Positions 1 to 62,549 of a stretch of 64,000 nucleotides of DNA are shown here, piece by piece (position 1 is the stretch's first letter; every line of letters starts with the position of its first letter). A model generated the notes under the pieces. The model had not been told where the DNA came from. It saw only the letters and a program-made list of their open reading frames with translations, and made no database searches. The stretch spans positions 1 to 64,000 of the forward strand of contig MEDY01000141.1 of the NCBI GenBank assembly GCA_001724265.1. The letters run 5' to 3'. Position numbers and translations under genes: made by a program. Source of the stretch: Rhizaria sp. SCN 62-66. Lineage: Eukaryota.

Positions 1-239
1 ACACCACCCTGATAAAGGGAGCTTAGGAGGTCGTTGGGTGCCGTTTCTCTGTGGATTTCCTGTGAGAGAGTCCCTTTATGTAAAATTTCGTGCGTAACAC
101 AAAACAATTTGTAAATAATTAATGGATAAGAAAGCCTAAATACATGAGCGTGAAGATATTTTCACCAAAACAACAGCAAACAATACACAAAAACATTTTT
201 AAAGAAGTCAAACATCAGACAGTGACTGCTCAGTCGAGT

Positions 240-24200: not shown

Positions 24201-27200
24201 GTTCAATGCGAAAGCATCAGTGCGGCGGAGGAAGAAGACATTGAGCCTGTAAACCTGCTCGGTCTCGGCAACAGGAGCAGGGGGCTAGGCGACTGGGTCA
24301 TTTACCGTCACCAAAGTCACCATCTTGCGCCATAGATGCACTTGAACAACTGCGGTCGGTGCGGCCAGTGTAAGTTCTGTGATGTCGGTGTTGCGCTGAG
24401 GAGCCAATGCGGAAGGTGCCGAGGCAAGTGCAAGGAACGCGCCGTCAGTGCCGTTGTAAGCCGCAGTGTAGATAGCCTCGTAGTGATTGTGACGCATGCG
24501 CACAGGGCCAAAGCGGAGAGACACGGGCGCAAACATCTCCCTGGCGTTGCTCGCTACAGAAGAGCATGCACTAAACGTGACGCTACCTGCCGTAAAGGTC
24601 AGAGAGCATCCCGCAGAAGCAACACCACCGAAGCCCGTGACGCTCAACACAGAACGCGCAGTGACGCTGTCATCGGCAAGGGCGGTTGCAAGCGCACCTG
24701 TTGCAGTGAGGACAGCGCCCCAGCCAGCCGCCAGGGCCGTGTGCGGGAACACAGTCATCTCAAGAGTAGTCTCAACCCAAGCTTGCTCGGGCGCTGTGCT
24801 GGCGACTTCTGCTCCCGCTGAAATCATTGCAGCTGAGACGGGAAAAAGCGTGAAATCGAGCGCCCATGTTGCTGTGGAGGGAATGTCGGCGCGGAGGCCA
24901 ACAAATCCCGCGACACCGGTGGGGATCTGCAGCTCAATGCATGCACCAAGATCAAGCGGTGAGTACGTCGAGCTTGTGTAGAGAAATGACACGGAGAAAC
25001 CCGCGGCAACCTCCGTGATGCGATACCCCGTGCTGTTGTTAAGCGTGAACGATGGACCCGCGGCCGCGCCAACAAGCGTAACGCCAGCGGTACATGCGGC
25101 CTTTACGGCCACAGTAACAGGGCCTGAGGTTGCGACTGTCGGTGTGGTAGGAAGCAGTGTAAATGCAACTTCCGTGCGGAGAACCTGCGCGGCGGCTGAC
25201 GCCAGAGGCGCGCGCATTACACGTCGATCAACAACACGGTATGCCCAAAACAGCGGCGCGACTGACGCTGGTCGAAGGTTAAGTGCATTGGGAATAAGAG
25301 TGCGCATGTTGCCTTCGAATGCAACTAACGTGACTGCGCTCGTGCGCAAGACGTACGGGTCCAGCGCCGACTGGCGATGCGCTGCATTGTCATAGTCAAG
25401 GAGAAGAGCGCCAATCGGGCACGTGACAACATCATTGGGGGCGTGCGTTGTTGTGAATCCAATGCGAATAATCCGCTGTGAGCGCTGCAGCAATGTGCAG
25501 CCACCGGTAAGCGTAACGTTCGTGAAGTCAAGCGTGTTTAATTCAGCCTGAAGCTCAAACCAATAATCTGCTGCTGTCGTGTCAAGCAAAGTAATCGTCA
25601 AGGTACCGGAAACCACAGTCACATATTGCGTTGCTGTGATCTGCGCCATTGTTAACGTGCTTGCTGTGTAAACAATGTCGGGGGTAGGAGGCGCAAGTGA
25701 CTGTGCAATAATAGAGTTGGTCTGCTCTGCACCCAGGTGATACTGAAAGCACGTCTCAGGGAGCACCCTGGCTTGGTAAAACGCGTTGGTTTGAAAGTTA
25801 GACATAGCGTAGCCGTCTGTCACTAGCACAGTGAAGGCCTTTGGCTGCGGACTTGGTACACACGCATTAGTAATCTTCATAGGGCTAATTGTTGAGTTGC
25901 TCGCGCACGCGGTGGTCAAGTTCAAAAAGCTAAGGTTGGCGGCAACAGCCAGATTCCGTGCCACGCCGCAGTCACTGGAGGACAAAACCAACGAGAGGTT
26001 ACTGGCACGATAGAAGTCCGACGCCAGAGGAAACACCACAAGCACAAGGCGCGAAACAAGATTACCGCCACTCAGCACAAACTTATCGAGTGCGACAACG
26101 AAATTAAAAGGGATCACAGGCACAACCGCAAGTTCAAGCAGTGAGCCACCGACAAAAGCGTTGTGAGTTCCCGTATATGCGATCGGGGCAAGAGCAAGTC
26201 CGGCAGGCTCAAGCTTTTCGTATGTAGCGCTAAGGGCAAAACCAAAGTTGGTCGTGTTAAAAGACGCAATGTCCCACGCTACAGTAAATGTCATGGTGAA
26301 CGTAATTAGCTGCAACGGCACGCTAGTGTTAGGAGTGGCGCAAGTGACTGTGCGCGTGGTCGCGACCGCAGTGCACCCCGACGGGACGACGGCAGCTTGA
26401 TCACTCGTGAGTAGCGAGTTATCGTAGCTAAAAGTGAAAGAGGCTGCAGTCACTTTTCGCATCAGGTACAGGCTTGCGCGATAGGTCTGAAGCGTCTTTG
26501 CAACTGCAGAGGGTGTCGTTGTGCCGAGTCCATTCATAGTAACCGCAGATACACGCTTTGTGCGAAACTCAACGTGATAGGTCGGTTTGGAGAGAGTTGT
26601 ATCAACGCCAAACTCAGATGTGATATCGTTGATTTGTGAGTTCGCGCTGCTCTGCCACACAGATTCAAACCAGCGCGTGCCTGTGGGGGCTAAGGGGTCC
26701 GTAAAAACGTTGTGGTACGCGTTGAACGTTGTACGTACAGGGCCGATGCGCAACACACGCGGCAGATACTGGCCAGCTGTAGAAGTCACAGAGATGGATG
26801 AGCACGCCGTCATACTAAGCTCGGTTGTGGACACGTAGGTAGCAGAACAGCCGCCGTCAGTGAACGCGGTCGCGCCGACCACGGCAACCTTGGTTGTGGT
26901 TGAGAGGAATGACATCACCGCCGGCTTTGTAATGCGCAGATTGAATGTCCAGCCCGGTGTCATTTGTGCGGATGCGTACAGATACACGTGCCAGTATGAG
27001 TCAACCATTGCAAGCCCGGCAACATCTTTGTCCGAGGTAACAAGCCCAGTCACAAGTGCCGCCGTGTGAGGATTAGTGCCAACAAGCAGGCCACGGGTGA
27101 CAGTCACGGTCGACAAAACAGCGCTTGCGGTTGTTGTCGATGTCAGCGTGGCTGTCGTGTTGATCGAGAGTGCAAGGCAAGTGTTGAGCACAAAGTTGTA

Positions 27201-30200
27201 GAACTGCGTGGCAGTGTACAGAAACTTAACACCAAGCGATGAAGACGAAAACTTATTAACAACCGAGTTTGTAGGGAAGACAGTGCTAACAGACGTCAGC
27301 AACGACAGCCCTGCGCAGGCAGGCTAAACGGACACAGAAACGGCAGTCGGAGAAAGCGCGCGAAGTGGGTAGGCGTTGTAAATATAGATGTTGACCTCAA
27401 GTGTAACGTAATGCTCGTTACGCCCGTAGTCAGCAGCATACGCGCGCTTGCTCTGCACCATGTATGAGAAGAAGTCACTGGTGTTTGCTGGCCGCATGTT
27501 GATGACATTTAATGATGGCACTTTCTTGCTCTGATAAGCAAGTGAATAAAGCTTAATAGCAGTGCTTGGCAGCACAAAAGGATCACCAGGGGTTGCGAGA
27601 GCGCTGTTGGTAAGTGAAAGAAGCCCCATATTTTGAAGTGTACATGTAATTACGGAATCGCCGCCTGAATATGTTACGGTCGTTGTTTTAAACGTAAATG
27701 TGCTCTGTGAACGCGAAACGAGAGTGCATCCACTGCCGCTGACAACATTGACGGACGTAAAGTCGACTGCGTTACTAGTAAACGCAAACTGCGAACTCGA
27801 TGTCAGAGTGTCGTCAGTGACGACGTTAAAAGTGCCCGTCGCTGAAGCGGCAGCAATGTCAGGCAAGCCCGATGTGGGGGCCAGTGTAAGCGACACAGGC
27901 GTGTATGAAAAGCGCGATGAGATTGTGCGCGTAAAACTGACATCGTTGATTGCGGTTCGCATTACGGTGCCTTGTACTGTCGTAAAGCAATTGAATGGCA
28001 ACACCATGTTGCTGAGAACTGAACTAAGAGCAGTCCCGTGATCGAGTGTTAACGCAGCGGAAAATCGGTACTTAAACGGCGTCGCTGGCCGCGGTAGGCA
28101 TGCCACTGGCGGATCAACGTAGAGTGAGTTGTACGCTGCGCACTCAGTTGACAGCTCGGGATTTACGACGCCGATCGGATTGCTAAAGTCCAACGAGACG
28201 CCAGCACACACTGGATTTGTTGATAGGATCACGAGAGTTTTGTTGAGAGGAACACTTTTCGTATAGCTCCGATACAAAAAGTAAATATCAATGCTGGCCA
28301 CGGTGCGGTTTGGCGACATAAAAAATTGCGAAGACGTTGTCACAATAAATGGTTGGACAACTGAATCAGCAACGTCATAGTCGGAAATTCCCGACAGCGA
28401 CGGCACAACAGTCCTTGCAGAGGTACTTGGTGTACGCACAGCATCCGATGAAACAGTTGTGGTGCTAATTGCATAGTTTGTACTAGAATATACAACGACT
28501 CCGTATGGAAACCGACAAGTCCCACAAATTTGCATGACGTGGACAGCCATGTACGCCGTGGTGGAGCCGCCAGAGATTGCACAGGTGACTGAAATAATCG
28601 GGTTTACGCCGGTGGTGACTACAGGCGCGGACACGTTACAGTTTGGATGTGGATATTGCTGGGGGAGTATAGTATCGCTCTCAACAGTTGACACAGCAAC
28701 GTGGTCGTTCGCGTCCAAATAGTCGATGACGCTGTACGGGATCTGGAAAGACACCATCATTGCGGTCGTGCGCCTAAAGCTGATAATAGAATGACTGTGC
28801 GCGCCGGTACGGTAGATATTAGCAGCGGAAATGTTAGGATATTCACCAACAACGACCGAGCTCGACGATGTTTGCAGATCAAAATAGCTATTTTGCAACC
28901 TGACAATTACTACAGGCTCGGCGTCAGTCATAGTCACATCAGAAAAGTCGGTATTGACAGCCAGCGCATCCGCCTGTGGAGGCGTTGTTGCAACAGCACT
29001 TACACCGGCACTTGCAAGCGACACTGCAAGCAGCGCATCGTATTGCGCAAGCGTGACTGTGACGGGGCCAAACCGGAGCACGCGCGGGGTAAACACACCG
29101 GGGGCATCGGCAGTCACAGCGGCACAACCCGAGAATTCGAGGCTCTGTACGGTCAAAGGCGTTACTGTCGTGCACGAAAAAGACTGTCCTGTCACAAGCA
29201 CGGTTGCGTCCGTAAAGCTAAATAACGACGCCAGTACAGACGAAGACAGCACGAGGCGGAAGCCCCAGTTGGCGGGCAGCGCGGCGTGGGCAAAGATTGT
29301 GATCTAGAATGACAGATTCCACGGAAAACTCATAATCGCAAGCTTGTCGCGTGTCCGTGTGTCGCCCCCTGGCATCCGAATCGCATAAGGCGCAAACTGC
29401 ACGTCGTACAGCTGCGTTTGAGCGGTCGTCGTCGCAGTCACAGAGCGCGCCGGCGCAGCGGTGGCGGCCGAAGCAAAAGACATCACGAGGCAGTCTGCGG
29501 GAGCGGCAATGCTGCTGGTGGCAACGGCAACAGAAATGGTCGTATCAGTGCTCACGACAGCCATCGCGCTGCTGCGGACAAGCGTGCCCGTGGCACCTGA
29601 GATTATTGTTACGTCAGAGCAAACAGAGCTAAACGTGTACGTCTCGTTGACAGAGGCTGGCGCAGTAGGGTACACATATGCGCGCAGCTCATAAGCGTAC
29701 TGGCGCGCGCTGTTTGTAACCGCGCGCCGCACGCGCCGCAACAGCGACAGAGGTCGCCAGTGGAAAACAGGGGCCGGACCGCTCGGGGGCGGGCTCAGCG
29801 CAAGGCTGCCGGCCGCGTCCACGACCGTAGCGCTGCTTTCGAGCGAGAGACGCAGCGCGCCTGGGACAAGTGTGTACAGCGTTGGCAGCGCTGCAGAGCC
29901 GACAACAGCGGTGAGCCTCAGTCCGGTGAGGATGCATTTGACTGCAGTGGCGCTGGCAACAATGCGCGTGACTTCGATGTGCACGGAGCTGTTTGTGGCT
30001 GTGATGAGCGCGCAGTCAGACCCGCCGGCAGCGGCGGCGTCGGCGGCTGACACGGTTTGCGCGGCGGAGAGGTCCAAGCCAGCAAACGCGCCCTCGGAGC
30101 GGAACATGAGCTGTACTCCGCGGACTAGCACCGCGCCGGGGGAGATGGAAAGCCGTCCCGTTGCCACAACCACAAGCGTTGTTGCAGAAGAGAGATCGGC

Positions 30201-31923
30201 GCCAGGCGTGATCGTGAGCGCCAGAGGTGTGTAGCTGAACGAGGACGTCACATCAGCAATGACGCCACTAACAGTGCTCGCGGCGTTCATCGTGGTCGCA
30301 AACACGGCGCTGCTGTTATCAACTGCAACGCGCACCAACACTGCGTTTGCGGGCATCGCCGCGCCGGGCAGCGCTGTTGTGCTGCCGAAGAGGCCGGTCA
30401 GCTGCAGTTCAAGGCTGTTGCCAGTCGCCGCAGCGAGGGCGCCACAGGGGCAGCGGGCGCTCAGCACGGTGTCCCCGGTCAGCGTTACATTGCAGCCGGC
30501 GTTGGCAACTGCCGCGGAGGCCGCGAAGGCCAGCGGCGCGGTGGCGGCAAGGCGCAGCGTAATGACAGCATGTGTGCCGAAAGTGCACAGCGCTTCGGGC
30601 ACGGCGCTGCCGCGCCACGTGCGCAACACCGCAGTGAATAGCGAATTCGCCGCGTCGACCGCGGTGGCCGTGAGGAGAGTCAGCGACAGCGCGGTTTGCT
30701 CGTCCGTGAGCGCCGCCGTGTACGCCGCCGTCGCGCTGCCGCAGCCGAGGTATTGATAGCGCGTGGCAGACGTGACGCGGTCCTGCAGCGCGGGCCGCAC
30801 GCTGAGAGTGAGCGTGTCGGCGCTCTCACCATCGGCAAGAGCCGCGGGCGCGGGGATGCGAAACCACAGCGACATCGGCGTGTTCTGCGCAAAAACCACG
30901 TCTGTGAACGCGGCGCCGAGGTTAAGTGCAAACACCGCGCTGGCGCCGTTGTCGAGCGCGTTCACGGCGGTAACATCGGCGACCGCGTCAGACATGGCTC
31001 CAGGCAACACTGGTGCGGAGAAGGGCAGTGAAACGCTGCCCGGCGCAACAGCGGCGAGTAGTGAGACCGAGCCCGCGCGCACGGCTGTCAGCGAAAGCAC
31101 AAGGCGCAGCGCGGGCGCGGTGTTGAAGCTGGCGCGAACGAAGTCCTGTAGTCGCGTGAGCGCGGCGGTGTCCCAGTCCGACAGCGCGACGTGCACAAGC
31201 AGCGTGTTGGCGTCGCTGGCGACGCGTGTGACGGCGAGCGCGGCGCGGTAAAGCGGACGCGTGACGAGCGTGGGTGCTGCTGTGAGCGCAACGGTCCCGT
31301 CGAGGCGCAAGTACTGCGTGGCGAGGGACACGAGTGCGGGGCGCCAGAGAGCGTCGGTCGAGGAAGAGCAGCCAGGCAAGGGCGCCGTGTCGCGAGTCAA
31401 CGCAGAGGTCGTCCAAGCGCCCACGGGAAAAGACGCGGGGGGCGCGGTATCGAACGCAGACGCGGAGCTAAGAGTTGAGCATTTGAGAAAATACGATTAT
31501 TAATGTGAGTATCAGCGAGTTGTACATGTGTGTTATATTTCATTAATTTTAAGTTGTGCAAGATGTTAAGACGTACCAGCTGCTAATGGTGATAGAAGTG
31601 GCCCCGGAGGCAACAGTCGCGCACGGAGTCTCCGCGGCGCGGACTGCAAGCGCGAGGTACGCGGCGGCGGGCGCCACGAAGGTGATATTGGTCGCACTCA
31701 TCGCGATCGCAGACGCCGCACATAGCGCGGTATCCAAGCACGTGACGGCAACGTCAACGTCGAAGATGATGGTGCGCGAGGCGGCCACCACGCTCGGGGC
31801 CGAGTCGTACACGGTCATCACGGTGGACAACACGCGGAAGCCTTGGAGTGTCGCCGTCGTCACGGCGGTGGCAGTGGCGGGCGAAGTGAGAGTGAGCACA
31901 CTCAGCAGCGCAGCAAAGAACAT
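240..31923 (-). CDS. Giant (~10,524 aa) signal-peptide-bearing multi-pass membrane/adhesion-type protein. Exon 1 31923-31577, exon 2 31467-240, with three in-frame TAG codons read through (29304-29306, 27324-27326, 24285-24287)
   Basis: ATG at 31923 starts a hydrophobic signal peptide (MFFAALLSVLTLTSPATA). A phase-2 intron (31576-31468) joins it in frame to ORF 29304..31424. ORFs 29304..31424, 27324..29252, 24285..27302 and 240..24206 share one frame and are separated only by single TAG codons. The gene ends at TAA 240-242. Spliced length is 31575 nt = 10525 codons. Domain order: ~750-aa repeats, beta-propeller-like segments, Cys-paired Ig-like repeats, 8 Sushi/CCP, calcium-binding EGF, IPT/TIG, CxxC (GCC2/GCC3-like) repeats, TM bundle. 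Confidence 0.8.
930..4290 (-). other. C-terminal multi-pass transmembrane region of the giant protein, split by a long Ser/Pro-rich low-complexity insert (~3900-1620)
   Basis: Hydrophobic helices (VAYLIMIATFAAAVVVCGVL, FWVTSIGIMFLPLMGLLLPMLFF, FFVVTLGLPMLIFWVVGIPFFAWYML and others). The motif FLYRGYKPKRYYWFLVEMARKACLV resembles the TM tails of large protist adhesion-like proteins. Confidence 0.75.
4930..5930 (-). other. IPT/TIG-like domains followed by CxxC repeats (GCC2/GCC3, ephrin-receptor-like)
   Basis: TIG-like: LTVSGSGF...ISGRQC...CRLPAGTG and LVLRGENFG...IGGLLC...CYTPG. Repeats: CPPGQH, CAPGTA, CIAGFY, CPVGTY, CPRGTF, CAPGTF, CPLGA. Confidence 0.7.
6745..8640 (-). repeat. Eight tandem Sushi/CCP (SCR) domains plus one calcium-binding EGF domain
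   Basis: Eight repeats of C...Y/F-x-C-x-x-G...C...G-x-W...P-x-C (e.g. YEYGCESGFTLNG..CTAGGWSSVTAPLC; AVYTCETGFILSG..CTASGTWLPASPTC), then DIDEC...CVNTFGSYVC. Confidence 0.85.
8650..12800 (-). repeat. About 10-11 tandem ~110-aa beta-rich (Ig-like) units, each with a Cys pair
   Basis: Recurring C-x-F-like motif (PPCTFS, DACAFA, GVCAFR, AQCTFA, SDCVFE, GMCGFT, PVCAFR, AACTFA) with a second Cys ~25-35 aa later, at roughly regular spacing. Confidence 0.55.
13280..16500 (-). other. Two beta-propeller-like (WD40/YVTN-like) segments in the ectodomain of the giant protein
   Basis: Blade-like strings: YAITVAPDETTLFVNVDNRRILVI, ITVTAAALHKPTGEFYVATKEGLI, VATLAVHPTGQMLMYSC, IVSMAYSQHGAYLAV. Confidence 0.5.
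21000..31460 (-). repeat. Four to five diverged tandem ~725-775-aa protein repeat units at the N-terminus of the giant protein
   Basis: A landmark motif recurs about every 2.2-2.3 kb: YLRLDGTV (~31305), PRVLRFGPV (~29075), PRVLRIGPV (~26750), PVSLRFGPV (~24512), PRTLRFSATV (~22338). Other recurring motifs: DPFVLPSTAIKL / DPYVLRTSAVTL / DPFKMLASAMRL and INMRPAN / LNLRPAS / LELRPTN. Confidence 0.75.
31468..31576 (-). other. Spliceosomal intron (109 nt, phase 2) of the giant gene
   Basis: Minus-strand donor TG|GTACGT, AT-rich body, acceptor CTCTTAG|C. Splicing gives ...ITISSCSASAFDT... in frame. Confidence 0.85.
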
Positions 31924-34315
31924 GATAGCAGAGAGAGAAAAGACTCGGCAATACGCAGAAGGCCGCGCTGCCGCCAAGGAAAACCGCCAGTTCATGGAGC
32001 AAAGAAGCCAGGACGGGTTGGCTCAGTGCAAAAGCAAGACCAGAAAATCGGACAGTAACCAATCAGTGTGAGATCGCGCAAGCGTAAACCCCGCTAAAGC
32101 GCAGAAAACCAAAGGATTTGCTTTGCCGAGTGTGTATATAGAGCGAAAGACCGAGCTAACTAGCGTCCAGTGTGGGGACGGCGGCGTGCTCGGGCAACGG
32201 TTTGGGCAACGGTTTGAAAAAGCTGCTCTCGGGAGCTGTTTCCAACACTATACGTCATAAAACGCAAAAGTCAACATGGTGAAAAAAAGTTATGTAAGCG
32301 GTAATATTGTAAAAAAAAGTTTAAATTCAGCATCTTGCAGATTTAAGGCATGGCACCCGATGGCAGATGTCCTAGATGAAGTGCGGTGAGATATTTGAAT
32401 TTTGAATATTGAAGCTAAAATCTCACTGTCAGTCAATCGTCACTAAGGTTATAAATATCATAAATAGATATTACCATAGATGAATTAATTTAACAAAAGA
32501 GATGGAGGAAGAAAAACCGATAATATCATGTTGAAAAATTGTCATATTCAAATTGGACGATCGTTCCTCTGGGCTCGCTCCCGGTTATATGGCTGATCGA
32601 AACAATCGACATGCCCCAACGCCGACTGATCGCAAAGAGGTTCGTGTACAGTTGAGCGGCGGCGAGTTACAGGTTTCGGTGCCATATGTGAGCTGTCCAA
32701 CAAAAGCTATATATATGGGCCACAATTGTATGTTCACTTAGTCACCGTTTTGTTTCTACGTATAATGCTGCCCTGTCCTATCTAAAGGCAATGTGGAGTC
32801 TCCTCGAGGCGTTCCTTCCGCCAAGGATAGATATAAGCATATGATTGCGTCTCAAAAATGAGTGCATCGTTATTAAATTGTGAAAAATAAATACGCGGGT
32901 TACCAAACATTTTTTCAACCCGACTCTTTCTCGGACGTCTTTGCAGCCTTGTGAGACCTGGGTCGGCTTCAGATCGCGTTCGCAGACCAGAAAACAAATC
33001 AGTATGATATGCGTTGAAAACATTGTTTCATAACATTCCGTGCGGTAAAAGCACGCAAAACTGTTGAATTATGGTATTCACTTGCACTACTGCGAATAGT
33101 TGCCTAAAAGCGTCATATACTTGCCGTTACAGTCAATCGAAGATTTGCACTCTCCTTCCCGGTGAACATGGAGGTTGGGAATGCTAGTCTATTTATTTGA
33201 CGATGCAGACGATGAAAATGATCGCAGCTGCAAAATTTGGTTTTGCCGCATTGCTTTTGACTATACAACGGATGATTAATTGTTCCTGGCGATTTTTTCA
33301 CGCAGAAATCTGATTTGTTATCGTCTTGACATGGGAGCAGCGACCAAATAATCTTAGTGCAAAACAGTCCTGTGACAAACAACGGCATTCTCTGCTCGCA
33401 AATTTTAAATACCATTCAATTCTTCAGTTAAGATTTGCATTTTTGACCTCTTCCATGTTTTATCACCAAAGTCGGCATCTATTCTTGTGGGTAACTCCCC
33501 ACTGAAGCACTGATCTGTGAAGAGATTCCTGAATATTACTACCTAAGGTCGATTTAATACTCATTGTCAACGCAAAATTACTTGATTAATGCAGAAATTG
33601 TGATTTTTCATACTTATTGGTGTGCGCTTTTGCTGCTGATTTCCACGTTCTTATCCCCCTGATGTATGGATGAAAAAGCTTTCGATCGTCATTTATTCGA
33701 TTGCCTAAAGTCGATTGCCTAAAGTTAGATGAGCTGAAGATTACTGTAAAGCCTTGCTGACGCGGGAATTTTCGCACTTTTCAGTTTCGCCCAGGATACA
33801 AAGCACAGTTTATTGAGAGGCATGCAAACAATTTCAGAGCTCTATTGTTTTTATTTCGATTTAGCACCGACGGACAGACAACACATGTTTATGAAGACGG
33901 GTGCTTCGTCATCGCTCTTCGTCATTGTGAAGAACGCACACAGTAAGTACACACCTCTACTCTAGAGGGGTTTATATGTAGCAATCAATCACGCCAACAA
34001 TCATGGATACAGGAAGACTTCGCACAGATACATATTTTAGCAACCAATACTAATTTTCACAGGAGCAGATCCAGAAACCACAGTAACTGAACAACAAAAC
34101 ACAGTTGCTACACGTTAATCTCGAGTCATATACGTCCGGATATACAAGCTACATGACATGCTATCGCAAGCAATATACTCTCGCCACCATCTCCGTATTC
34201 ATCAATTAGAGAGACATACAGTGCAACCATCCCCATTTGGAGAGGGCTTAAACTATTCTGTTCATACGAGGACAAGCACGCGTTCTCGTGCACACTCACG
34301 CGTTACGCTGCCCAC

Positions 34316-35398
34316 TCACGCGGGCCCCATGACAAAGCCGGCGACGGCAAAGACGAGGAACAGCGCCCCGCCGATGGCGTTGACAGCGCGTTCGCTGATA
34401 CGCGAGGCGAGAAGTTTGCCACCCACGACCGCAAGTCCCGTACACATGGCGTGTCCGATGAACGAGCCCAGTGTCACGCCGTACGGGTTCTTGCTCGCGG
34501 CCATGGCGATGGTGGAGATCTGCGACCGGTCGCCCCACTCGGCGAGAAAGGTCATTGTGAAACACTGGATCATGATGGGGGTGAGACACCGGCGCAGAGA
34601 GAGCTGGACAGATGAAGCCAGACCCGGCACCATGTCTTTCTTGAGGGCCTCGCCGGCCTCGACGTCGCCGGCGTCGTGCTCGGCCGCGGCGGACTTAAGC
34701 GCCTGCATCTCGCAGTCATCATCGTCGTCGTTGTCGCGCGCGCTGATCACGTTGCCCTTACCACTGCTGCCACCACTGCTGTTTGAATGGGCACTTTGTT
34801 TCGCAGCGGCGAGCTCCTCCTCAACCTCCTGCATCTCCTCGGCCGCGGCGCCGCCCTCCGAGGTAAGCACGGTGTGCAGCAGCTTGACGCCGAAGACGAC
34901 AAAGAGCACACACGACGCGAGATGCGTGTATTGCTTCGGGAGCAGCGCCGGGAGCGTCATACCCAGCCCGACGGACAGCACCGTCATCACTGCCAGCGCG
35001 GCGCCCGCAGAGAGGAAGATGGCGCGGCGCGAGTGCGACATGGCGAGGATGGCGGCAATAAAAAACGTCTTGTCGCCGAGCTCGGACACGAGGATCATGG
35101 CCCAGGTGGACATGAAGGCCTCGATGAAGCCGGGCATGACGAGTCCGGCTCCAGCGGGGTCGGCCGCGCCCGAGTCGACCACGGGCGGCAGCAGCGCCAC
35201 GGGCATTGTCAGCGCGGTCGACGGCAATGCAGGCGCAGCGGCGGCGGCCACAGTGGAGCCGATAACCGCGGCGTTGGGGTTGTCCGCGCCGAGGTTCGCG
35301 CTGGCGAGGATAGGGGTGACGGTGAGTAGCGCGAGCGAGACGGCGCTGAGCAGCAGCGCCAGCGCAGGGCGCGCGCGGGACACGGGCGGGGAAGGCAT
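34316..35398 (-). CDS. GDT1: GDT1/TMEM165 (UPF0016) Ca2+/Mn2+ transporter
   Basis: Two UPF0016 signature motifs (SELGDKTFF and AEWGDRSQI) with flanking TM helices and an acidic loop. Likely start MPSPPVSRARPALALLL at 35398 (the ORF extends to 35512). Stop TGA. Confidence 0.92.
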   Translation of the reverse strand: MPSPPVSRARPALALLLSAVSLALLTVTPILASANLGADNPNAAVIGSTVAAAAAPALPSTALTMPVALLPPVVDSGAADPAGAGLVMPGFIEAFMSTWAMILVSELGDKTFFIAAILAMSHSRRAIFLSAGAALAVMTVLSVGLGMTLPALLPKQYTHLASCVLFVVFGVKLLHTVLTSEGGAAAEEMQEVEEELAAAKQSAHSNSSGGSSGKGNVISARDNDDDDDCEMQALKSAAAEHDAGDVEAGEALKKDMVPGLASSVQLSLRRCLTPIMIQCFTMTFLAEWGDRSQISTIAMAASKNPYGVTLGSFIGHAMCTGLAVVGGKLLASRISERAVNAIGGALFLVFAVAGFVMGPA

Positions 35399-38420: not shown

Positions 38421-40709
38421 TTACCAGTAGTGGGGGCAGTAGGTGTCGGCGTAAGGGCAGCCGATGTTGCGCGGGGGCTTGTAATCAAGACGCACGTTGC
38501 GCTTCTCCAGCAGAGTGAGCGGGCGGCCGCCGACCTCGGCGATCTTCTTCATGAAGTGCGCCTCCTGCCAGTACGAGATGAGCTCCTTGCGGGCGCGGCC
38601 GTAGGTGGGGAAGCAGCCCTTGGCGAGGATCGAGATGGCCGGGTCGGGGCGCTTGCTCATGAGGTGATACTTGACGACAGTGGTGAGGAACTGGTCAGAG
38701 TTGCGGAGGTGGCACGACTGAGGGATGCGGCCGCTCTTGTAGCCCGCATCGACGGAGTTGATCCACGCCTCGAGGCGCTGCACAGTACCGACCTCGGACG
38801 ACTGGAGGAACTGGGAGATCTCCGTGCCAAGGTTGAGGAACAGACGCGCCGCGAGGGGGTCCGTGGCGTGCTGCGCGAGCGCGAGTTCCCAGCCCTGGAT
38901 GAAGTACTGGTACGCCTTCTCGGGGTCAGACTGCAGCAGCGCGATGCAGCGCGTGGCGTGCGCCGTGGGGCGCTGCTCGAGCGAATGGCGGAAGTACGCG
39001 ATGGGCTCGTCGACCATGCCGACCTCGGCAGCGATGACACCGAGGTAGAAGCTGTGGAGCCAGGTGTAGCCCTTGGTCTTGGCGGACTTCTCGATCAGGG
39101 CGCGCCAGTCCTCGTCGACCTGGTACGACTGCGGCAGCGACGCGAGCGTGAGCGCGGAGAAGGTGTTATTGGTGAGGAGCTCGATCCAGGGGCGCGACTC
39201 ATCGTTCTCGATCAGAGTGAACTTGGCGCCGGGCGCGAGGCGGGCGCGCGCGTGGCCGACCGTCTTGCGGTAGAGCTCGTTGAGGCCGCCCCAGGGCATG
39301 CCCTCGTAGAGGATGTCCTTGTCCTCGGGGTCAACCATCGAGTACTCCTGGAAGAACTTGTGCATCTCGGTCATCTTGGCCGCAGTGACGCCGTTCTTGC
39401 CCTCCATCCAGCGGTTGATGCCGCCGATCGCCACGTCGTGGTCGCGGTTTTGCGACACCGCCGCGGAGACGTCAGCCGTGGTGCCCGCCTTGAACACCTC
39501 GGTCCACTCGAACACGGAGTCGGCGGCCAGGCGCCAGTTCTGCATCTGGGTCGGCGCGGGGCCCGTCTGGAGCTCGGCGTAGTCGCCCGTGCGGTTGGGC
39601 ATGACGCCCGCGGAGAGGAAGTCCTGCATGAAGCGGCCGGGACCGGTCTGGCCCCAGGTGAAGAACTTGGTGCCGTTGAGGGTGTGGCCGTGCCAGACGA
39701 AGTAGCCGTCGGCCTCGACGTGGGTGATGTAGCGGCGCTGGCCATCGGGGATGCGGAGGAAGTAGTCGCCCCAGATGATATTGCCGAGGAACGAGTGGTC
39801 CTGCGCCCACACGTTGTTGCCGAGCGGCGGCGCAAGGCCGGAGAAGGAGGTGTTCATGACCTCGGCGAAGTACGGCCAGGGCGCGTCGCGCACGGGGCCG
39901 GACGCCGTCTCGGCGACGTGGTCGGCGGGGGACAGAACGCGTGACTCAGGGGTGACGTGGTGCGCGACGCAAGTCCACCAGTAGCCGCGGAGGTCCCACT
40001 GGTGCGGGTTGGTGATCTTGGGGTGCATCCAGAGCTCGGCGCCGTCGTGGATCATGTCGACCTGCCAGACAGTGCCGTTGTAGCGGTCGAACTCGTAGAC
40101 GCGGACCATGGGGCCCATGCGGGTGGACATCTGCGCGACGTACACGGGCGACTCGGAGAAAGCCGAGTGGCCGATGATTCCGGGCGACCAGTTGAACTCG
40201 AGGCCACCAGCGGCCCAGGCCTTGAGGGCGCCGATGTTGGCGGGCTGGTGGGCCTTGTTGTCGAAGAACATGTCACGGCCGTTGACCTTGTCGACGGTGT
40301 TCCAGACCTTGCCGGCGACGGAAGGGACGACGTCGGTGCGGAGGTACTCGTTCTCCATGCGCACCACGGGAAGCTTCTCGGGCTGGCGGTCGCACGTCCA
40401 CTGGTCCTGGGTCAGGTACGGCAGCTGGGGCGAGCGGGTGTCGGCCATGGCGCCCTCGAAGATCTCGGGGCCGTTGGTGTCGTCGGGGGTGAAGGGGCGG
40501 AACGTGCCGCGGCCACCGCCGATAAACACGTGCGTGGCGCCACCTTCAACAGAGCCCTGGGAGAAAAGGAAACCGGGGAGGATGTTACCGGGAAGCACGC
40601 GCGACTCGATAATGTCGATGCTCTCCTTAGTAATAGTGCTCGGGCCAGCGGCGGCAAAGCACACCGCCGTGGCAACGAGAAGCGCCATGAACGTCTTGTG
40701 AAGACGCAT
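38421..40709 (-). CDS. DUF5107-domain protein with signal peptide and C-terminal TPR-like helices
   Basis: MENEYLRTDVVPSVAGKVW..VDKVNGRDMFFDN...PANIG..KAWAAGGLEFNW, YWWT, KFFTWG and YAELQTG match my recollection of DUF5107. Intronless, very high GC3, stop TAA. Confidence 0.8.
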   Translation of the reverse strand: MRLHKTFMALLVATAVCFAAAGPSTITKESIDIIESRVLPGNILPGFLFSQGSVEGGATHVFIGGGRGTFRPFTPDDTNGPEIFEGAMADTRSPQLPYLTQDQWTCDRQPEKLPVVRMENEYLRTDVVPSVAGKVWNTVDKVNGRDMFFDNKAHQPANIGALKAWAAGGLEFNWSPGIIGHSAFSESPVYVAQMSTRMGPMVRVYEFDRYNGTVWQVDMIHDGAELWMHPKITNPHQWDLRGYWWTCVAHHVTPESRVLSPADHVAETASGPVRDAPWPYFAEVMNTSFSGLAPPLGNNVWAQDHSFLGNIIWGDYFLRIPDGQRRYITHVEADGYFVWHGHTLNGTKFFTWGQTGPGRFMQDFLSAGVMPNRTGDYAELQTGPAPTQMQNWRLAADSVFEWTEVFKAGTTADVSAAVSQNRDHDVAIGGINRWMEGKNGVTAAKMTEMHKFFQEYSMVDPEDKDILYEGMPWGGLNELYRKTVGHARARLAPGAKFTLIENDESRPWIELLTNNTFSALTLASLPQSYQVDEDWRALIEKSAKTKGYTWLHSFYLGVIAAEVGMVDEPIAYFRHSLEQRPTAHATRCIALLQSDPEKAYQYFIQGWELALAQHATDPLAARLFLNLGTEISQFLQSSEVGTVQRLEAWINSVDAGYKSGRIPQSCHLRNSDQFLTTVVKYHLMSKRPDPAISILAKGCFPTYGRARKELISYWQEAHFMKKIAEVGGRPLTLLEKRNVRLDYKPPRNIGCPYADTYCPHYW

Positions 40710-41238: not shown

Positions 41239-42020
41239 ATGTCCCAGCACTGCTCATGGGTCTTCTCATGCAGCAGTAGCCCTACCGCCCTCAACTCGTA
41301 CGTGTTTGATTTGTTTTTAAGACATGCGATTAGCCACGCGCTTATACTTCTTCTGGCGCATTTTATGTGCTTATTGGCATTTTGCCCCCTTAGTACGACA
41401 TGATCTTCTGACTCACACCATGATGTTTTTTTCAACCGTTCCTTCCCCCCCATTCGCCCCCACAGCGACGATGAAGCAGCGTTCCAACCGCGCTCTCTTC
41501 CGTCATCTATCTCGGTGTCTCTGCGCGTCTACCCCGCGCCCTCCGTGCTCTCCCCACTCAACGTCTTCCCTCTCCACAACGGCCCCGCCGCCTCCGCCAC
41601 CGCTCCTGTAACTTCCGCCGCGTCGGCGTCCTCTTCCGCTCTGCCAGCGCCGCTCTCGGCCGCCGACGCTGCCCCCAGCCTCCCCGCGGCGGCCGCGAAC
41701 ACTTCCGCGCTCGTGCAGATCTGGTCCGCCTCGCTCCCGCTCCCAGAGACCGAGGCCGGCGCCGCGACCGCAGACTCCGTCGCTCACGACGCGAGTGTTG
41801 GCGCATCAGAGCGTGTGACGACGACGACGACTACTGTGACGGTTCCGTGCCCGCGGTTTGCGCGGATTGACTGGTCGGAGTTTGCCGCTGAGGACGAAGC
41901 CACACTCACGGTCACGCTGCCGCCTCCGAGCCCCGTCGCAGCGGCTGCCACTCCTGTTGCTGCTTTTGCTTCGTCCTCAACAAACGGCGCTATGACGGCT
42001 ACGATGACAGCCACTGCTGC

Positions 42021-42053
<33 letters not shown>

Positions 42054-45000
42054 AGCGCAGCCTCTGGCGGGTCCTGTGGCGCAAACGACCGCGCGCGAGG
42101 CCGTGTCTCTGTTCATCCCGTCGTATGCCTTCGAAGCCGAGTCGTCACGTTCACCCTCACCCGGCCCCGCCCCCGCCCCCGCCTCGGCACAGGCGCAGTC
42201 ACTCTCGCTATCATCACAGCCAGTCTCCGCTGCGAACTCCACTGCGAGCGAGAATGTGACACGCACCCTGTCGCTGCCGCCGCTGCCTAGTGCGCTATCG
42301 TTGTCCCTCGCAAGCACCCCGTCCCGGTCCTTCGTCTTCACGTTCCCGGGCGGCGTCACGGTCACTGCCACGGCCACCGCGCTGCCAGCCACTGGCCCAC
42401 CGCCGTTTCAGCCGCACTCAGCGATAACAGCGCAGGAGGACCGTGGCGCGGCGCCGCGGGACAGCGCTGTAGCCGTGCACAATCCCGTCTCCGCGTCTAA
42501 CAACTGCGGCGGCGGCGGTGGTGGTGTGCCTACTGCGACGACAGTCGGGGCTGACTCTAGCCAGGGCTCGCTGGCCAGCGAAAGCGACTCTATTGGATCT
42601 GCCACTGCTGCTACAACAGCAGCAGCGGTAGTGCCGCGGCGGCCGGTCGCGTTCGAGGTCAACTTCGCCGCCCTGCCTTCGCCCTCAGCCTCCGACGCTG
42701 ACGGCGCCGGTGCCGACGCAAACAGCGTGGGCGATGGCAGCTGTGGCGATGTCAGCGTGGCGAGTGCGCTTTCACATCACCAGCCCCAACCGAGCACGCC
42801 CCGCACCTCCGTCCGCACCTCCGCCAGCGCCGCTGCCGCGTCTGCGTCCGCGTCTGCGTCTGCCTCTGCGTCGTCTGCGGCGGCGGCGGCTGCGGCGGCC
42901 GCGGACGCGGAGGCGGGATACAGCGGGGGCGCAGTGCTCCGGACTCCGGCCCCACGCGCCTCGACACGGCACCGCTACAGCAGCCACAGCAATAGCGGCA
43001 GCAAGAGCAAGGTTAGAGACAGTAAGAACAGCCCTTCGAGCCGCGCCCACGCTGCGAGCACTGATCGCGCCGACATAGACGACGACGGCGACGGCGACGG
43101 TGATCAGAGTGCGTTTTGCGGTCTGGGAGACGACGACGGCATCGACAGGCTGCACGAGCGTCAGTTCATTACTATCCCGTACTTCCCTCATTCGTCGACG
43201 ACGTCCGCCAACGCCACAGCCAACGCGGGCGGCTCTGCTGCTGGCTCGGCCTCGGCGTCGGCCTGCTCCTCCCCGTCCTCATCCTCAGCCGCTTTCTCTT
43301 CTGCACAGAACAGCAGCAACAGCAACAGCAACAACAACAGCAACACTGCGGCTAGCGCAAGCAGCGCTGCCGTTTGCACAGGGAGTAACTCCAGTGCTTA
43401 TGCAGCGCCCTGGTCCGCGCGCCGCCCATCCGGCGCTACTGCCTCCGCCGCCGCGGCCGCCGCGGCTGCGGCGGCGGCAGCCGCCGCGAGCGCCGCGGCC
43501 GCCGCCCCGCCGACCGACCCGTCGAAGCTTCCGTTCCCGTCCCGTTTGGCGTACCCGCTGCCGCTGGCCGCCGCAGCCCGCGCCGCCGCGGCCGCGCCGC
43601 CGCCCGCGCTCACCGCCGCCGCCGCGGCCGCCGCGGCCGTGGCCCTCGCCGACCGCACGACGGTGGTGTGGACCGCGCGACACGAGGAGCTTTTGCTCTT
43701 ACCTCTCCGCGCGGAGGCTTATTTAGCGCTCGCGCCGGCACAAGCGGCCGCCGCGGACGGCGGCGGCGGCCGCGTCGGTCTGGCCCGCTTGCTGCGGCCC
43801 GTCGCGGCCGCTCTCGCGGTGCAAACGGCCGAGCTGCGGTCGCAAGTCGCGAAGCTCGCGCTGGTGACCGTGGGCGCGCTGGCCCGCGAGTGCGGCCCCG
43901 CCTTCGTACTATTGGCCGACGCGCTGCTGCCCGCGCTTGCCGTGCAGCTGTCTTCGTCGAAGCAGATGCTCAGCGCCGCCGCCACGGAGTCGCTGAACCA
44001 GGCCGCCGACGCCGCGGAGCACCCGCACTTCCTCGCGTTGGTGCTGGCACTGGTGCGGGAGAGCAAGCAGGACCGCATCGCGCTCGGTTTGGCGCGCGCG
44101 CTGACGATTATACTGGAGCGTTGGCCAGGGGAGCTGTTTGAGCTCTCGCCGACGGAGGCCCTCCTCACTGCCCCCTTTTCACCGCATTGCAGCAGCAACA
44201 ACAACAACAATAACAAGGACGCTGTCGCGGCTTCAAGTGATTCCGTTGCTGCTGCGACGCCGTCTACGACTGCGACTTCTGCTGCTGCGGCCGCTGCGAC
44301 TGAGCCACCGACTCACAGCCACAGCCACGGTCAGTCGTGCGGTCATGCTAGCCGGACTAGGCCTCACCCTCATCAGTCACCTGCGGGTGAGAATACGACC
44401 ACTGCACCGACTGCGACGCCGGCGCGTGCCACAGCGAGCGGGCCGCTCAGCGCGCGCTCCCGCGGCACCGGCGCCGCCGCCGCCGTGCCAGTCTCCGTGG
44501 CCGCCGCCGCCGTGGCCCCTCTCATCGCCGCCGCGACGGCCGCCGCCGCCGCCGCCGCGCAGGCCCCGATCCGCGCGCCCCCGCCGCCCCCCGCCTGGTT
44601 ACTATCACACGCGACCATCCGCGACGCCGTGTTCGCCGTGCTGCCTGTGCTGCTCTCCCATGCCGGTCCGCTGACGCGCGCCAAGGCGCGGACCGCGCTG
44701 TACCACGCGTGGCTGCGCTGGCCCGCCGCCGCCGAGGCCGTGCTGGTGCGGCAAAGCGTGGCCGTGCGCGGCGCGTTCGACGCGCAGTGGCCCGACTTCG
44801 CTGAAGCAGAGGCGCTGGACCCCACTTTGCGCGAGGAGCGCGCGGCCCATCGTACTCAGGCGGGGGATGCCGCGCTCGCTCTCGCGCCCAATCTCGCCGC
44901 AGCGGCGGCGGCCGAGGCTGCTGCGGCGGCTGCGGCGGCTGAGTACGACGTAACTACTGGCGCCGCGACAGACGTTGTGGCGTTTGCAGTGCCGACAGTG

Positions 45001-48000
45001 CCCGCCGGCGCCCGCGCCCGCATTGCCGCCTCATCTGCGTCGTCTGCTGCGTCGGGACCGATGGTCATGGGCACCGTCACGAGCACTCCTGTGAGTACAC
45101 GTGTGCGGTCTGCGCGAGTGCCGTTTTCCCGCGCACGTTTCGCTGCCAGCGCCGCGGTCGCCGCTTCCTCAGCCTCAGCCTCGGCGTCGAGCAGTACGAA
45201 CCCCGGTGCGGCCTCCCTGACTGCGACTGCGCCCCCGGGCCAGGCTTCTGCGCCACCGGGGTCCTCTGGCGGGCCGTCAGCCGGTAGCCTCGGCGTCGGC
45301 GTCCTCGTCGGCAGTGTTACCGCTAGCGGTGGCGGCGGCGTTGTCGGGGGCGGCGGGTCGGGTGTTTTTGCGTTCGGCAGCGAACGGCTCGATCCCAGTG
45401 CGGCCAATACACCGGTGTGCCGGCCCCGCAAGACCCCCGCTCTCGCGAAGCTCCACACCGGCGCCGGCGCTGGCGACACTGGCGCTGGCGCTGGCGCTGG
45501 CGGTGGCGGTGCAACTGGCATCTCGCAGTCAGGTGACGGTGGCGGCAGTGAGAGCGAGGAGGGAGGCTTGCTGCCGCTGATGTAGCTGCCGAGCAGCCCC
45601 TTAGCCTCTCCTAAGTACCCCTACAGCGCGCACAACGGTCACAACGCTAGCAATAATGGGGATAGTAAAGATGAGAGCTATGAATCGATGTCGCTCAGCG
45701 GCTCGATGGCGATGTAGCGTGATTCACCGTGCAAGAACAACAGTAGCAGTGGCAACAACACCACTCAGAACAGTGTAGTTAATGGCAAGACAGCGAAGTG
45801 TGCGCCGCTCAGTGCGAGCCCGCTGCCACCGCCGCCGCCGCCGCCACCTGCGCCCGAGCCAGCTTCTGACTCCGACTCAGATGCTGATGCTGGCAATGGC
45901 CAGGGTGATGCAAACGATGCGAACGCAGACTCAGAACCTGCCGCAAAGCCAGCGGCGACGGTGTCTGTGGCGAAGACAGCGACCGATAGCGAGACCAAGA
46001 CAGCGACTCCAGCTGCTGCTACTTCGTCTACGAAGCGTGGTCTCTTGCTTTTAAGGGGTACTTACATGTCTCTCGGCGAGGACCTCGATGCATACTGCCA
46101 GCCGCCCCCCGGCTTCACTTCGGAGCAACCAGCGGAAGACGGCGGCCTAAATTCGACAACGAGCGGTTTAACTTCCGCCGGAGCAGGCGACACCTCGTCA
46201 CTATCGTCGTCGTCGTGCCCCGACTGCAGCGCGGAGCCACAGTCCACGGCTTCCGCTTCCGCTTCCGCTTCCGCTTCCGGGGCTGGTGATGGTGCTGGTG
46301 GTGCCGTGTCTGCTGTGTCTGGAGTTTCTGCGTGTGTTTCTATGTGCCTTAACCACCGCCATTACAGCGGTGACGGGCCTCATAGCGCCTCCGCTGCTGG
46401 CGCGCACAGGCACGGCCACAGGCCCGGTCATAATCCTGGTCACGGACACGGTCACGGTCACGGTTATGGTCACAGCACTGGTCTCGGCCACGGTGCGACC
46501 GGCGCCCGGCGCGGCGCCGCCGCTGGAGACAGCGGCACGCACGCCGGCACAGCTGGCTTCGCGGTGAGCGCCGGTCAATACGGGCCACTTATCGGCTCAC
46601 TCGCCACCGCGAACGGCAACGGCAACGGGAGTGGTAACAGTCGCAATGGGGGCTTGGGACAGGCAGCGTCGCCGTTCAACGGTGCATACATGCTGTCCAA
46701 GGGCGACGACATCGACGCTTACCCCGCGGTCGCAAGCACTAACTCTAACACCGACAACAACAACAACATTGAGAACGATGATAGCGCTGCCGCCGATGCT
46801 GCTGTAGGTGCGAGTCAGGACGCAGCGGTGATGTTGTCGTCTCTGGTGCTCCCGTCCGCCAACTCTGCCCCGCGCCGCCGCTCCGCCCCCACCAACGGCT
46901 CTGCTGCGACACAGGCTGTCTCTGCATCCGCAGTCGCCGGATCCTCGGTGACCGTGGCGGATGTGGGCCGCGTGACGGCGCTGCGGGCGCGCGCGCGCGC
47001 CACGGGTGACTGGTCGCACGTTCTCCTGCCCCCGCAGCCCGATCAGAACAACAACTGCGGCGGCAGCGCTGGCGACGAGAGTCACACCGTTGCAGAGCCG
47101 CACGTGCTACGGCTGCAAGTTGTGTCAGACGTACACTTGGAGCGCTTCCCCTCCCGCTACCCCTCGGCCTCTGAACTCGCGGCCGCGCTCGACGACGTCA
47201 TCATCCCCTCGGCGCCCGTGCTCGTGCTCGCCGGCGACATCGGCTGCCCGGCCACGCGCGCGGGCGCGGCGCTGTATCTATCGTTCTTGCAGCTCCAGGC
47301 CGGTCGGTTCGAGCTGGTACTCGTGCTAGCGGGGAACCACGAGTTCTACTCACCGCTCACGCCCACAGGTCCGCAACAGCCCGCGTCGTCTGCCGCCGCG
47401 ACGTCGACAGCTTTTGTTGCTGTAGCGTCGCCGCCGAATGCGGCGCTGTACGCACGGGGCAAGAGCAACAGCAACGGTGCCAGCGAGAGCATCGCCAATG
47501 ATATCCCCGTCACGGAACCCGCTTCTGCTGCTGAGGCTGCGGCTGAGGCTGAGGCGGAGGCTGCTGCTGCTGCGTTGAATGGCGCTGTGAGCGTCGCATG
47601 TGTTCGCCGCACAATGCGCGAACTGTGCCGTGACGCCGGTGATAACGTACTGTTTCTCGACCGTGATAGCGTCACTTTCACCGCTCCCGCGCCTCATTTA
47701 CACTTTGCACAACCACACTTACAGTCGCAGTCAGCAGAGCAACCCACTACTGACACGAGTGCGAGTGTGCGCGTGTGTGGTGCGACGCTGTGGTCGTTTG
47801 TAGGCCACGAGCACGCAACGCATGTGGAGCGCGCGGTCAGCGATTACGCGTACTCGTTCGTTGACAACGAAGCATACGCGGCGACACCGCTCTGCAGCAG
47901 CGATTGCACCGACACCACGGTTGCTGTTGCCGTCTTGTCGACGGCAGACAACTGCAATAGCAACGCAGTGACTGAGTCGACGACTGCAGAGGCCGCAGAG

Positions 48001-48921
48001 GCCGCTGCGACTGCGGCTGCGGTTAGCCCTCCTGCGGTCTCTTCGCAACAACATCAGCAACCCCAGCAACAGCAGCAACAGCTACAGCAACAACAGAACA
48101 GGTTGGCACGCGTGCGCCGCATGTGCGTCAAGGACACGGTAGCGATGCACAGTGCCGATGTGGCCTTCTTGCACGCGCAGGTCGCCGTGGCGCGCGCTGA
48201 GGGGCAGCGGCTCTGCGTGCTGACGCACTACCCGCCCACGTTTAGCAACACGTCCGACCCGCGCTTTAAGGTACGCGAACGATCATTTCGTGGCCTTGTT
48301 TCATTCTCAGTTTGTTCAACATGTCTCTCCTTTTCCTTGTCTCTCACTCACCATTTACTTTTCTTGCTGTTGCATTTTCGCCGTATTTGTGACTGTAGGA
48401 TTCTCCTTTCCGCTGGGCGTTTGCGAGCGCGCTGGATGATTTCATGGCACAGTCGACGCCGACACTGCACACCTGGGTCGCTGGTCACACGCATTGGTAC
48501 GTCTACTATTTATAGCGTTTCATAACCACTGCTCAACATGTGTCGCACCAAACTTCACTCTTTCTGCTTAGTAGCAATATTTTTGGATGCATCGAGTCAC
48601 AATTCATGGTAACTATGATGAATTCTTACTCAAGTTATTGGTTCGTGCCATTTTTCATTGTTTTTCGCCGAAATTGTCAAATTGTCGTGCAGGTCGTACG
48701 ACTTTGAGCACCGTGGCGTGCGCCTCGTCTCGAACCAGTTCGGGTATCTCGGCATCCCGGAGACCAAGTTTAACCGCGCCTTCACCGTCGACATCCCGGT
48801 CACCGTGCCGCTATCTATGTAGGCGTCCCGCGAGCCCTCAAAGGCTGCAGGTGCGATGTAGGCGGTTGTGGAGACTGTTGCGACTGACTCACTGCCGGGG
48901 AAGTGTTGCGCTGTCGTTTGA
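41239..48921 (+). CDS. ~2,396-aa fusion: CLASP-N/TOG-like HEAT region + calcineurin-like metallophosphoesterase + C-terminal CaaX. Exons 41239-41297, 41466-48270, 48399-48496, 48693-48921; four in-frame TAG codons (45583, 45715, 48820, 48859)
   Basis: CLASP-like ELRSQVAKLALVTVGALARECGPAFVLLADALLPAL. Phosphoesterase motifs SDVHLE, LAGDIG, AGNHEFY, GATLWS, THYPP, then after splicing WVAGHTHW and SNQFGY. ORFs 41515..45585 and 45961..48525 are in the same frame, joined by coding-like sequence interrupted only by TAG. Read-through ends ...GKCCAVV-TGA. Spliced length is 7191 nt. Confidence 0.7.
41298..41465 (+). other. Spliceosomal intron (168 nt, phase 2)
   Basis: TC|GTACGT donor, CTGAC branch-like motif, pyrimidine tract, CACAG|C acceptor. 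It joins MSQHCSW...ALNS to DDEAAF in frame. Confidence 0.75.
48271..48398 (+). other. Spliceosomal intron (128 nt, phase 0)
   Basis: AAG|GTACGC ... TGTAG|GAT. Splicing restores the phosphoesterase segment DSPFRWAFASALDDF...WVAGHTH. Confidence 0.88.
48497..48692 (+). other. Spliceosomal intron (196 nt, phase 2)
   Basis: TG|GTACGT ... TGCAG|G. Splicing gives GHTHWSYDFEHRGVRLVSNQFGY, the expected end of this phosphoesterase family. Confidence 0.88.

Positions 48922-56246: not shown

Positions 56247-56296
<50 letters not shown>

Positions 56297-62490: not shown

Positions 62491-62549
<59 letters not shown>

Follow-up and report, generated by a model that had tools for sequence, protein, structure and literature searches.

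The stretch of DNA considered here, referred to as the window, comprises 64 kb (positions 1 to 64,000 of contig MEDY01000141.1) and is eukaryotic nuclear DNA, as marked by a gene for the splicing factor cactin. It contains two long genes on opposite strands, a giant minus-strand gene and a plus-strand gene for a protein with a CLASP-like part and a metallophosphatase part, which together carry seven in-frame TAG codons. A reading made from the sequence alone had proposed from these TAGs that UAG is a sense codon in this organism, while UAA and UGA remain stops. The analysis reported here indicates that UAG is probably translated in the organism, at least at the seven sites, and that UAA and UGA terminate. 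The wider claim of a UAG-only code fared unevenly: the TAGs do lie in continuing coding sequence and no gene ends in TAG, but a genome-wide change does not follow from TAGs in only two of nine genes, and a single 64-kb window is not enough to prove that the code has changed.

The giant open reading frame (ORF) lies on the minus strand at 240..31424 and spans 10,394 codons, ending in a TAA at 240-242. Three TAGs must be read through for it to stay open, and it has no in-frame TAA or TGA and no frameshift. The coordinates and frame of these TAGs were borne out: they are codon 707 (29304..29306, context TTC TAG ATC), codon 1367 (27324..27326, GTT TAG CCT) and codon 2380 (24285..24287, GCC TAG CCC). 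Residues from about 230 to 3200 of the conceptual protein form four super-repeats of about 750 amino acids each, with a mutual identity of 20-26%. In the gap-free alignment of these four paralogous repeats each TAG lies in a different repeat and takes up one residue column with no extra length, and the alignment continues on both sides. The nearest in-frame ATG after the TAGs is about 70 residues past the third. Because each TAG occupies a single column, is flanked by homology and has no close ATG, these sites are not introns, gene boundaries or intergenic sequence. The TAG at 29304 falls in a beta-strand predicted by a low-confidence model; for a 300-amino-acid repeat piece the structure prediction gave a mean predicted local distance difference test score (pLDDT) of 45, which does not suffice for a fold search.

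No Pfam family was found for the giant protein over the scanned part (31424-12207), a 4,999-amino-acid piece had no relatives in metagenome contigs, prokaryote genome contigs or viral contigs, and the paralogue-like protein P0133 had none in genome contigs. A profile-free search of 1.84 billion representatives, using a 1,200-amino-acid piece that covers two of the TAGs, gave 11 matches; three of these are the window's own fragments and eight are family members at 23-30% identity, and none of the 11 is an orthologue with a residue opposite a giant-gene TAG. Three repeat-family relatives (P0129, P0134 and P0127) lose the family pattern in their C-terminal tails, as frameshifted sequences would, and may represent pseudogene copies or else assembly errors from related organisms. 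Two other proteins (P0131 and P0137) end in ...IGRAHV where longer members of the cluster go on; these ends look like translated sequencing adapter at a contig end. At its own 5' end the giant ORF lacks an ATG before codon 144, and an in-frame TAA stands 24 codons before its first GTG (31424-31499); the true start of the gene is probably in an upstream exon.

The plus-strand gene (41515-48921) is continuous only when two introns are removed, a feature absent from the sequence-only reading, which had nonetheless placed its four TAGs at the right positions and in the right frame. Exon 1 (41515..48270) encodes low-complexity sequence, a CLASP_N-like region (residues 758-847), a linker holding the TAGs at 45583..45585 (CTG ATG TAG CTG) and 45715..45717 (GCG ATG TAG CGT), and the start of the metallophosphatase. 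It is followed by intron 1 (48271..48398; GTACGC donor, TGTAG acceptor, G+C content (GC) 0.42), by exon 2 (48399..48496), which covers the region of the metallophosphatase GHTH motif, and by intron 2 (48497..48692; GTACGT donor, CAG acceptor, GC about 0.37). Exon 3 (48693..48921) encodes the end of the metallophosphatase and a tail with the TAGs at 48820..48822 (TCT ATG TAG GCG) and, 39 nucleotides past that one, at 48859..48861 (GCG ATG TAG GCG), and it closes with a TGA at 48919-48921. The introns are predicted from their GTACG donors and from the fit of the three exons to two orthologous phosphatases, which they tile end to end; this tiling supports the gene model. A homologue search with the phosphatase part found two proteins, and a search with the CLASP-like part found none. 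The tail of the orthologue P0140 is as long as that of the window gene. With both tail TAGs read, the phosphatase would end in ...GKCCAVV (48898-48921); CCAVV resembles a CaaX prenylation box, with a second Cys before it.

Evidence that the sequence beyond the plus-gene TAGs is coding comes from a codon model, which was trained on six other genes of the window and in which the contrast between frames was scored against intergenic windows. The contrast seen for the 43 coding-like codons that follow the 45583 TAG is reached by 18 of 9,758 intergenic windows, that for the 116 coding-like codons after the 45715 TAG by 4 of 6,692, and that for the 32-codon C-terminal tail by 206 of 10,220. Not one intergenic window surpasses the contrasts of all three segments, each of which falls inside the range of in-frame coding sequence, and the GC of the segments after the TAGs (0.55-0.63) is exon-like. 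In particular, there is no in-frame ATG after the 45715 TAG for 116 codons, the next being at 46066, so this stretch could not be translated unless the TAG is passed. After the TAA and TGA terminators of the window a different picture is seen: the sequence scores as non-coding after all eight that were tested, and in seven of the eight an in-frame stop is reached within 32 codons.

The TAGs of the giant gene are present in independent data. Four sequencing runs were compared with the window over 11501-31500, the stretch that holds all three sites. The 29304 TAG lies inside a contig (28860-30761) and the 27324 TAG inside another (27233-28790), both from runs X2 and X3 and both without a difference from the window; the contig tables of X2 and X3 are identical and possibly represent one data set. 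The 24285 TAG lies inside a contig of run X4 (23122-24808), from a separate study, and none of the six differences listed falls there. As would be seen with standard gene calling, ORF fragments in public databases (ENA, Logan and JGI) end at the first two of these TAGs, P0123 at 29304 and P0122, P0136 and P0138 at 27324. The TAGs at these three sites are no assembly errors. At the RNA level, the giant gene is partly covered by contigs from a polyA library (X5), including stretches before the first TAG and beyond the third. The differences listed include none at the three TAGs themselves, with RNA cover of the sites unproven and a depth bin of zero around 27324. At 22046 one RNA contig (depth 3.8) has C where the DNA runs have T, which in the sense of the messenger RNA (mRNA) is an A>G change, Thr to Ala, in a CAC context; it may reflect strain variation, an error or editing. 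In addition, X4 and X5 contigs link 28188 to 30020 with 17 other letters between and very short flanks, and these probably come from another sequence.

The terminators of the nine genes are as had been counted from the sequence, seven TAA, two TGA and no TAG, and the finding that neither TAG gene contains an in-frame TAA or TGA or a frameshift holds over about 12,800 codons. Besides cactin and the metallophosphatase, the window encodes a peptidase C69, a DUF5107 protein and a DUF2838 protein. The peptidase C69 gene (35975..37723, plus strand) ends in TAA, has no in-frame TAG and served both as a control and for training; the DUF5107 gene (38421..40709, minus strand), a 1475-codon ORF with no Pfam family (52560..56987, plus strand) and an ORF of at least 932 codons that runs off the window (61200..63998, minus strand) also end in TAA and served as controls. 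TAA likewise ends the cactin gene (57552..60677, plus strand) and the DUF2838 gene, whose main exon is at 49699..51783 on the plus strand and whose first exon probably starts at the ATG at 49408, with an intron to about 49690. At 34158-35512 two long ORFs on opposite strands overlap, both ending in TGA and neither with a Pfam family; the minus-strand one (34316-35542) scores better as coding than its partner. An AT-rich spacer at 31549-32071 holds overlapping opposite-strand ORFs of 157 and 172 codons with positive coding scores, which possibly represent a small gene or an upstream exon.

The organism itself is found in public metagenomes from bioreactors, wastewater and activated sludge dated 2015-2025. 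Words sampled from the stretch were recovered at 88-100% in four runs and at 21% in one polyA metatranscriptome. Across runs of 2016, 2017 and 2025, from three studies, only six differences occur within the 20 kb of 11501-31500, three synonymous and three non-synonymous, a split with no statistical power; because of this small number over these years the organism looks clonal, as well as widespread in engineered water systems. Coding GC is 0.65-0.68 in most genes and 0.55 in the giant gene, as compared with 0.35-0.49 in seven intergenic stretches and 0.37-0.44 in three introns. The GC at third codon positions (GC3) is 0.55 in the giant gene versus 0.69-0.92 in the remaining genes of the window, and codon usage in the giant gene (240-31424) differs from that in the rest of the window (34000-64000). 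Among the matches listed, the best one to the cactin is a JGI protein with 61% identity over 550 alignment columns. A quick cactin tree was made from 37 of the 120 listed matches (the named ones and a few others). It puts the window inside an environmental clade of ten rows (Shimodaira-Hasegawa-like approximate likelihood ratio test (SH-aLRT) support 99), beside seven stramenopile rows (support 92); from this one gene, a placement beside the stramenopiles is weakly suggested. The organism is not a ciliate, given that TAA is its main terminator.

As to the residue at UAG, the polar paralogue columns described earlier were reproduced, being H/E/E opposite the 29304 TAG, S/K/T opposite 27324 and N/T/T opposite 24285. 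These variable columns are compatible with the Gln that had been proposed, but they fit Glu, Lys, Ser or Tyr equally well; they argue mildly against Leu or Trp. Gln would be the best guess, both on account of the known precedents and because a single transition separates CAG from TAG.

Several observations weigh against a plain sense codon, and three of them, the rarity of TAG, its clustering at the 5' end of the giant gene and its ATG context in the plus gene, had not been noticed before and complicate that interpretation. TAG is in frame in only two of nine genes, the seven others having none, and the seven TAGs in roughly 19,000 codons amount to about 0.04%. In the giant gene 3 TAGs stand against 100 CAA and 161 CAG codons, making TAG about 30-fold rarer than CAA, the minor Gln codon. 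This is far below the level expected of a settled synonymous codon, and none of the seven sites is at a conserved position or in a conserved domain. All three giant-gene TAGs lie within the first 23% of the ORF, in the repeat region, for which p = 0.012 if TAGs were uniformly placed, taken as (2380/10394)^3. No transfer RNA (tRNA) gene was found in the 64-kb window, nor was any Rfam match, and eRF1 is not among the genes it holds. The TAG at 48820 lies about where the orthologue P0139 ends, and it could be a leaky terminator. Of 23 metagenome loci with cactin relatives, at least 11 have TAG as the gene's terminator, right where the match ends (L002-L006; L010-L014, five near-identical copies; and L023). 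These 23 loci have 58-76% identity in the best segment, with L023 the most similar at 76%, and none of them is close enough to speak for the window's organism; since relatives end cactin in TAG, any change of code would be lineage-specific. The statistics of stop types are also less favourable than had been thought. The figure of 1/729 for seven TAGs by chance was overstated, as it assumes equal stop types; from the codon usage of the giant gene, 46-49% of random single-base nonsense changes would give TAG. Under this null the three of three in the giant gene have p of about 0.10-0.12. For seven of seven, p would be about 0.005 if the share is 47%, although the four plus-gene sites, all being ATG-TAG, are not independent. 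The lack of TAG among nine terminators has p of about 0.04-0.13 if TAG is assumed to end 20-30% of genes.

As for the ATG context, all four TAGs of the plus gene directly follow ATG. A plain sense codon does not predict this: ATG accounts for 18 of the gene's roughly 2,328 codons, which puts the chance at about 3e-9, and of its 34 TAGs in other frames not one comes after ATG. The first pair, 132 nucleotides apart, shares GATGTAGC, and the second, 39 nucleotides apart, shares the 9-mer ATGTAGGCG. In the giant gene the codons before the TAGs are TTC, GTT and GCC.

A number of possible sources of the ATG-TAG context were considered and rejected. A polyadenylation-type TGTAR signal is disfavoured in that the other ten stop contexts listed have no TG before the stop. 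A GT..AG intron between the paired copies would span 136 or 43 nucleotides, neither a multiple of three. If ribosomes bypassed from one AUG to the next, they would land at an AUG that again has a UAG after it. General enrichment of ATGTAG is not apparent, with 24 occurrences against 17.2 expected and 24 reached in 7 of 100 shuffles. Finally, an effect of AUG in the ribosomal P site is not mentioned in the excerpt of PMC8087045 that was consulted.

The main rival to translation of UAG as a sense codon is a standard code in which a few genes undergo leaky or programmed UAG readthrough by near-cognate tRNAs, e.g. tRNA-Gln(CUG). On balance this is thought rather unlikely. It accounts for the ATG context and the rarity of TAG better than a sense codon does, and for the giant gene poorly. 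Very rare TAGs, found nowhere but in non-conserved linkers, in a C-terminal tail and in repeat columns that vary, are what it would produce; the fixed ATG-TAG context, in pairs 132 and 39 nucleotides apart, is more suggestive of a signal than of a codon; TAG serves relatives as a stop; and the coding signature continues in frame after the TAGs, as programmed readthrough requires. Within the same unlikely account, readthrough would yield isoforms, the CLASP-like protein with or without the phosphatase and the phosphatase with or without a lipid-anchor tail, in keeping with a 48820 TAG near the end of P0139 and a tail beyond it that ends in the CaaX-like CCAVV. However, three TAGs precede 8,014 codons of the giant gene, and for this reason partial readthrough would give almost no full-length product. 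A TAG that is a normal terminator should also end some of the nine genes, and the phosphatase part has the 116 coding-like codons after the 45715 TAG with no ATG from which to restart. UAG-CAR-YYA is a leaky stop context, and neither it nor similar contexts occur at any of the seven sites, where the next codons are ATC, CCT, CCC, CTG, CGT, GCG and GCG; RNA folds with a z score below -2 in the 120 nucleotides downstream were also found at none of the seven. The lack of such a fold or context disfavours classical, structure-driven readthrough.

It is improbable that the TAGs are instead nonsense alleles, in a clonal lineage in which the 5' quarter of the giant gene is decaying along with parts of the plus gene, the products being truncated or begun further downstream. 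The organism does look clonal, the giant-gene TAGs do crowd into the first 23% of the ORF, and given codon usage three TAGs of three are not surprising (p about 0.1); moreover, the three repeat-family relatives with tails off the family pattern resemble frameshifted copies, and the three synonymous to three non-synonymous differences between runs, which have no power, are compatible with decay. The main argument against it is that no frameshift, TAA or TGA has arisen in the 10,394 codons of the one gene and about 2,400 of the other, together with the coding signal that is kept after every TAG. Furthermore, seven TAGs of seven are not expected even at the 47% share, four random changes would not all follow ATG, and polyA-library contigs are found on both sides of the TAG-bearing part of the giant gene, before the first TAG as well as after the third. 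Removal of the stops from the RNA is more improbable still, whether by adenosine-to-inosine (A-to-I) editing of UAG to UGG (Trp) or by unconventional splicing at ATGTAG. Editing of UAG to UGG occurs in filamentous ascomycetes, and specificity for TAG is what it would leave, but the cactin tree does not put the organism among the ascomycetes, and the paralogous columns are polar rather than Trp-like. The single RNA-only A>G change, at 22046 in a contig of depth 3.8, is in a CAC context and changes Thr to Ala, and no difference was reported at the giant-gene TAGs, where RNA cover is unproven. For splicing, the ACTGTAG|G acceptor of intron 1 does resemble the ATGTAG|G sites; against this stand the lengths of the GT-to-AG spans between paired sites, as given above, and GTACG-type donors were not seen just upstream of the paired sites, for which no systematic scan was made.

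Translation of UAG remains the reading preferred here; under it an amino acid would be inserted at UAG by a dedicated tRNA(CUA), and the rule would hold genome-wide. The likeliest mechanism is a capture of UAG by a tRNA that inserts a polar residue; it would be accompanied by a weakened recognition of UAG by eRF1, and it would be lineage-specific and probably young or incomplete. A more particular version, though an unlikely one, is that of a code in transition: UAG would have been dropped as a terminator and be already decoded, yet be rare because capture is young or decoding costly, and be tied to AUG in one gene, in an unsampled lineage that stands beside stramenopiles in the cactin tree. 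To our knowledge, a context rule of a preceding AUG has not been described for any known code. If UAG is indeed translated, an independent case in a GC-rich, non-ciliate, uncultured organism would be a data point on stop-codon capture, and the rarity of TAG would put this organism close to the start of the capture process. There is also a practical side. Gene callers that use the standard code cut the proteins of this organism at TAG, so that the giant protein is present in databases only as fragments that end there, and the metagenome annotation of the lineage would consequently be wrong wherever TAG occurs.

Departures from the standard nuclear code are called rare (PMC5304391), as are codes in which UAG and UAA differ in meaning (PMC5304391, PMC11687900). 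Stop-to-sense changes of UAG only are reported in Iotanema spirale and the rhizarian exLh (PMC5304391) and in phyllopharyngean ciliates (PMC11687900). Like these, the window has in-frame UAG inside genes while UAA is still a stop. Unlike them, its organism is GC-rich (coding GC 0.55-0.68) and not a ciliate, and its TAG is extremely rare, in two of nine genes and never at a conserved site; the published cases rest on transcriptome-wide or genome-wide data, whereas the present one comes from a single 64-kb stretch. A comparable GC-rich, non-ciliate case was not found in the literature, though one may nonetheless be in print. Abundant stop-codon readthrough is known from insects (PMC5100048). The window shares with it an in-frame coding signature past the stop, which in insects sometimes extends past two stops. 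The extensions of insect proteins are as a rule short and C-terminal, most of them behind UGA; in contrast, the window has UAG only, with thousands of codons after it.

Codes in which the same codon is ambiguously stop or sense are found in Condylostoma, Parduczia and karyorelict ciliates (bioRxiv 10.1101/2022.04.12.488043). A dual role of this kind would fit the 48820 TAG, which lies near the end of its orthologue. In ambiguous codes the stop meaning is set by nearness to the 3' end of the mRNA, and the codons are common in frame. In the window, by contrast, TAG is rare, three TAGs lie at least 8,000 codons from the end, and the sole visible context is the ATG, in one gene. Another non-ciliate microbial eukaryote, the aphelid Amoeboaphelidium protococcarum, reads both UAA and UAG as Gln (PMC5304391, PMC11687900). 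The organism of the window resembles it in being a non-ciliate microbial eukaryote with a candidate stop-to-sense change, but differs in that only UAG would have changed its meaning, TAA being the codon that ends seven of its nine genes.

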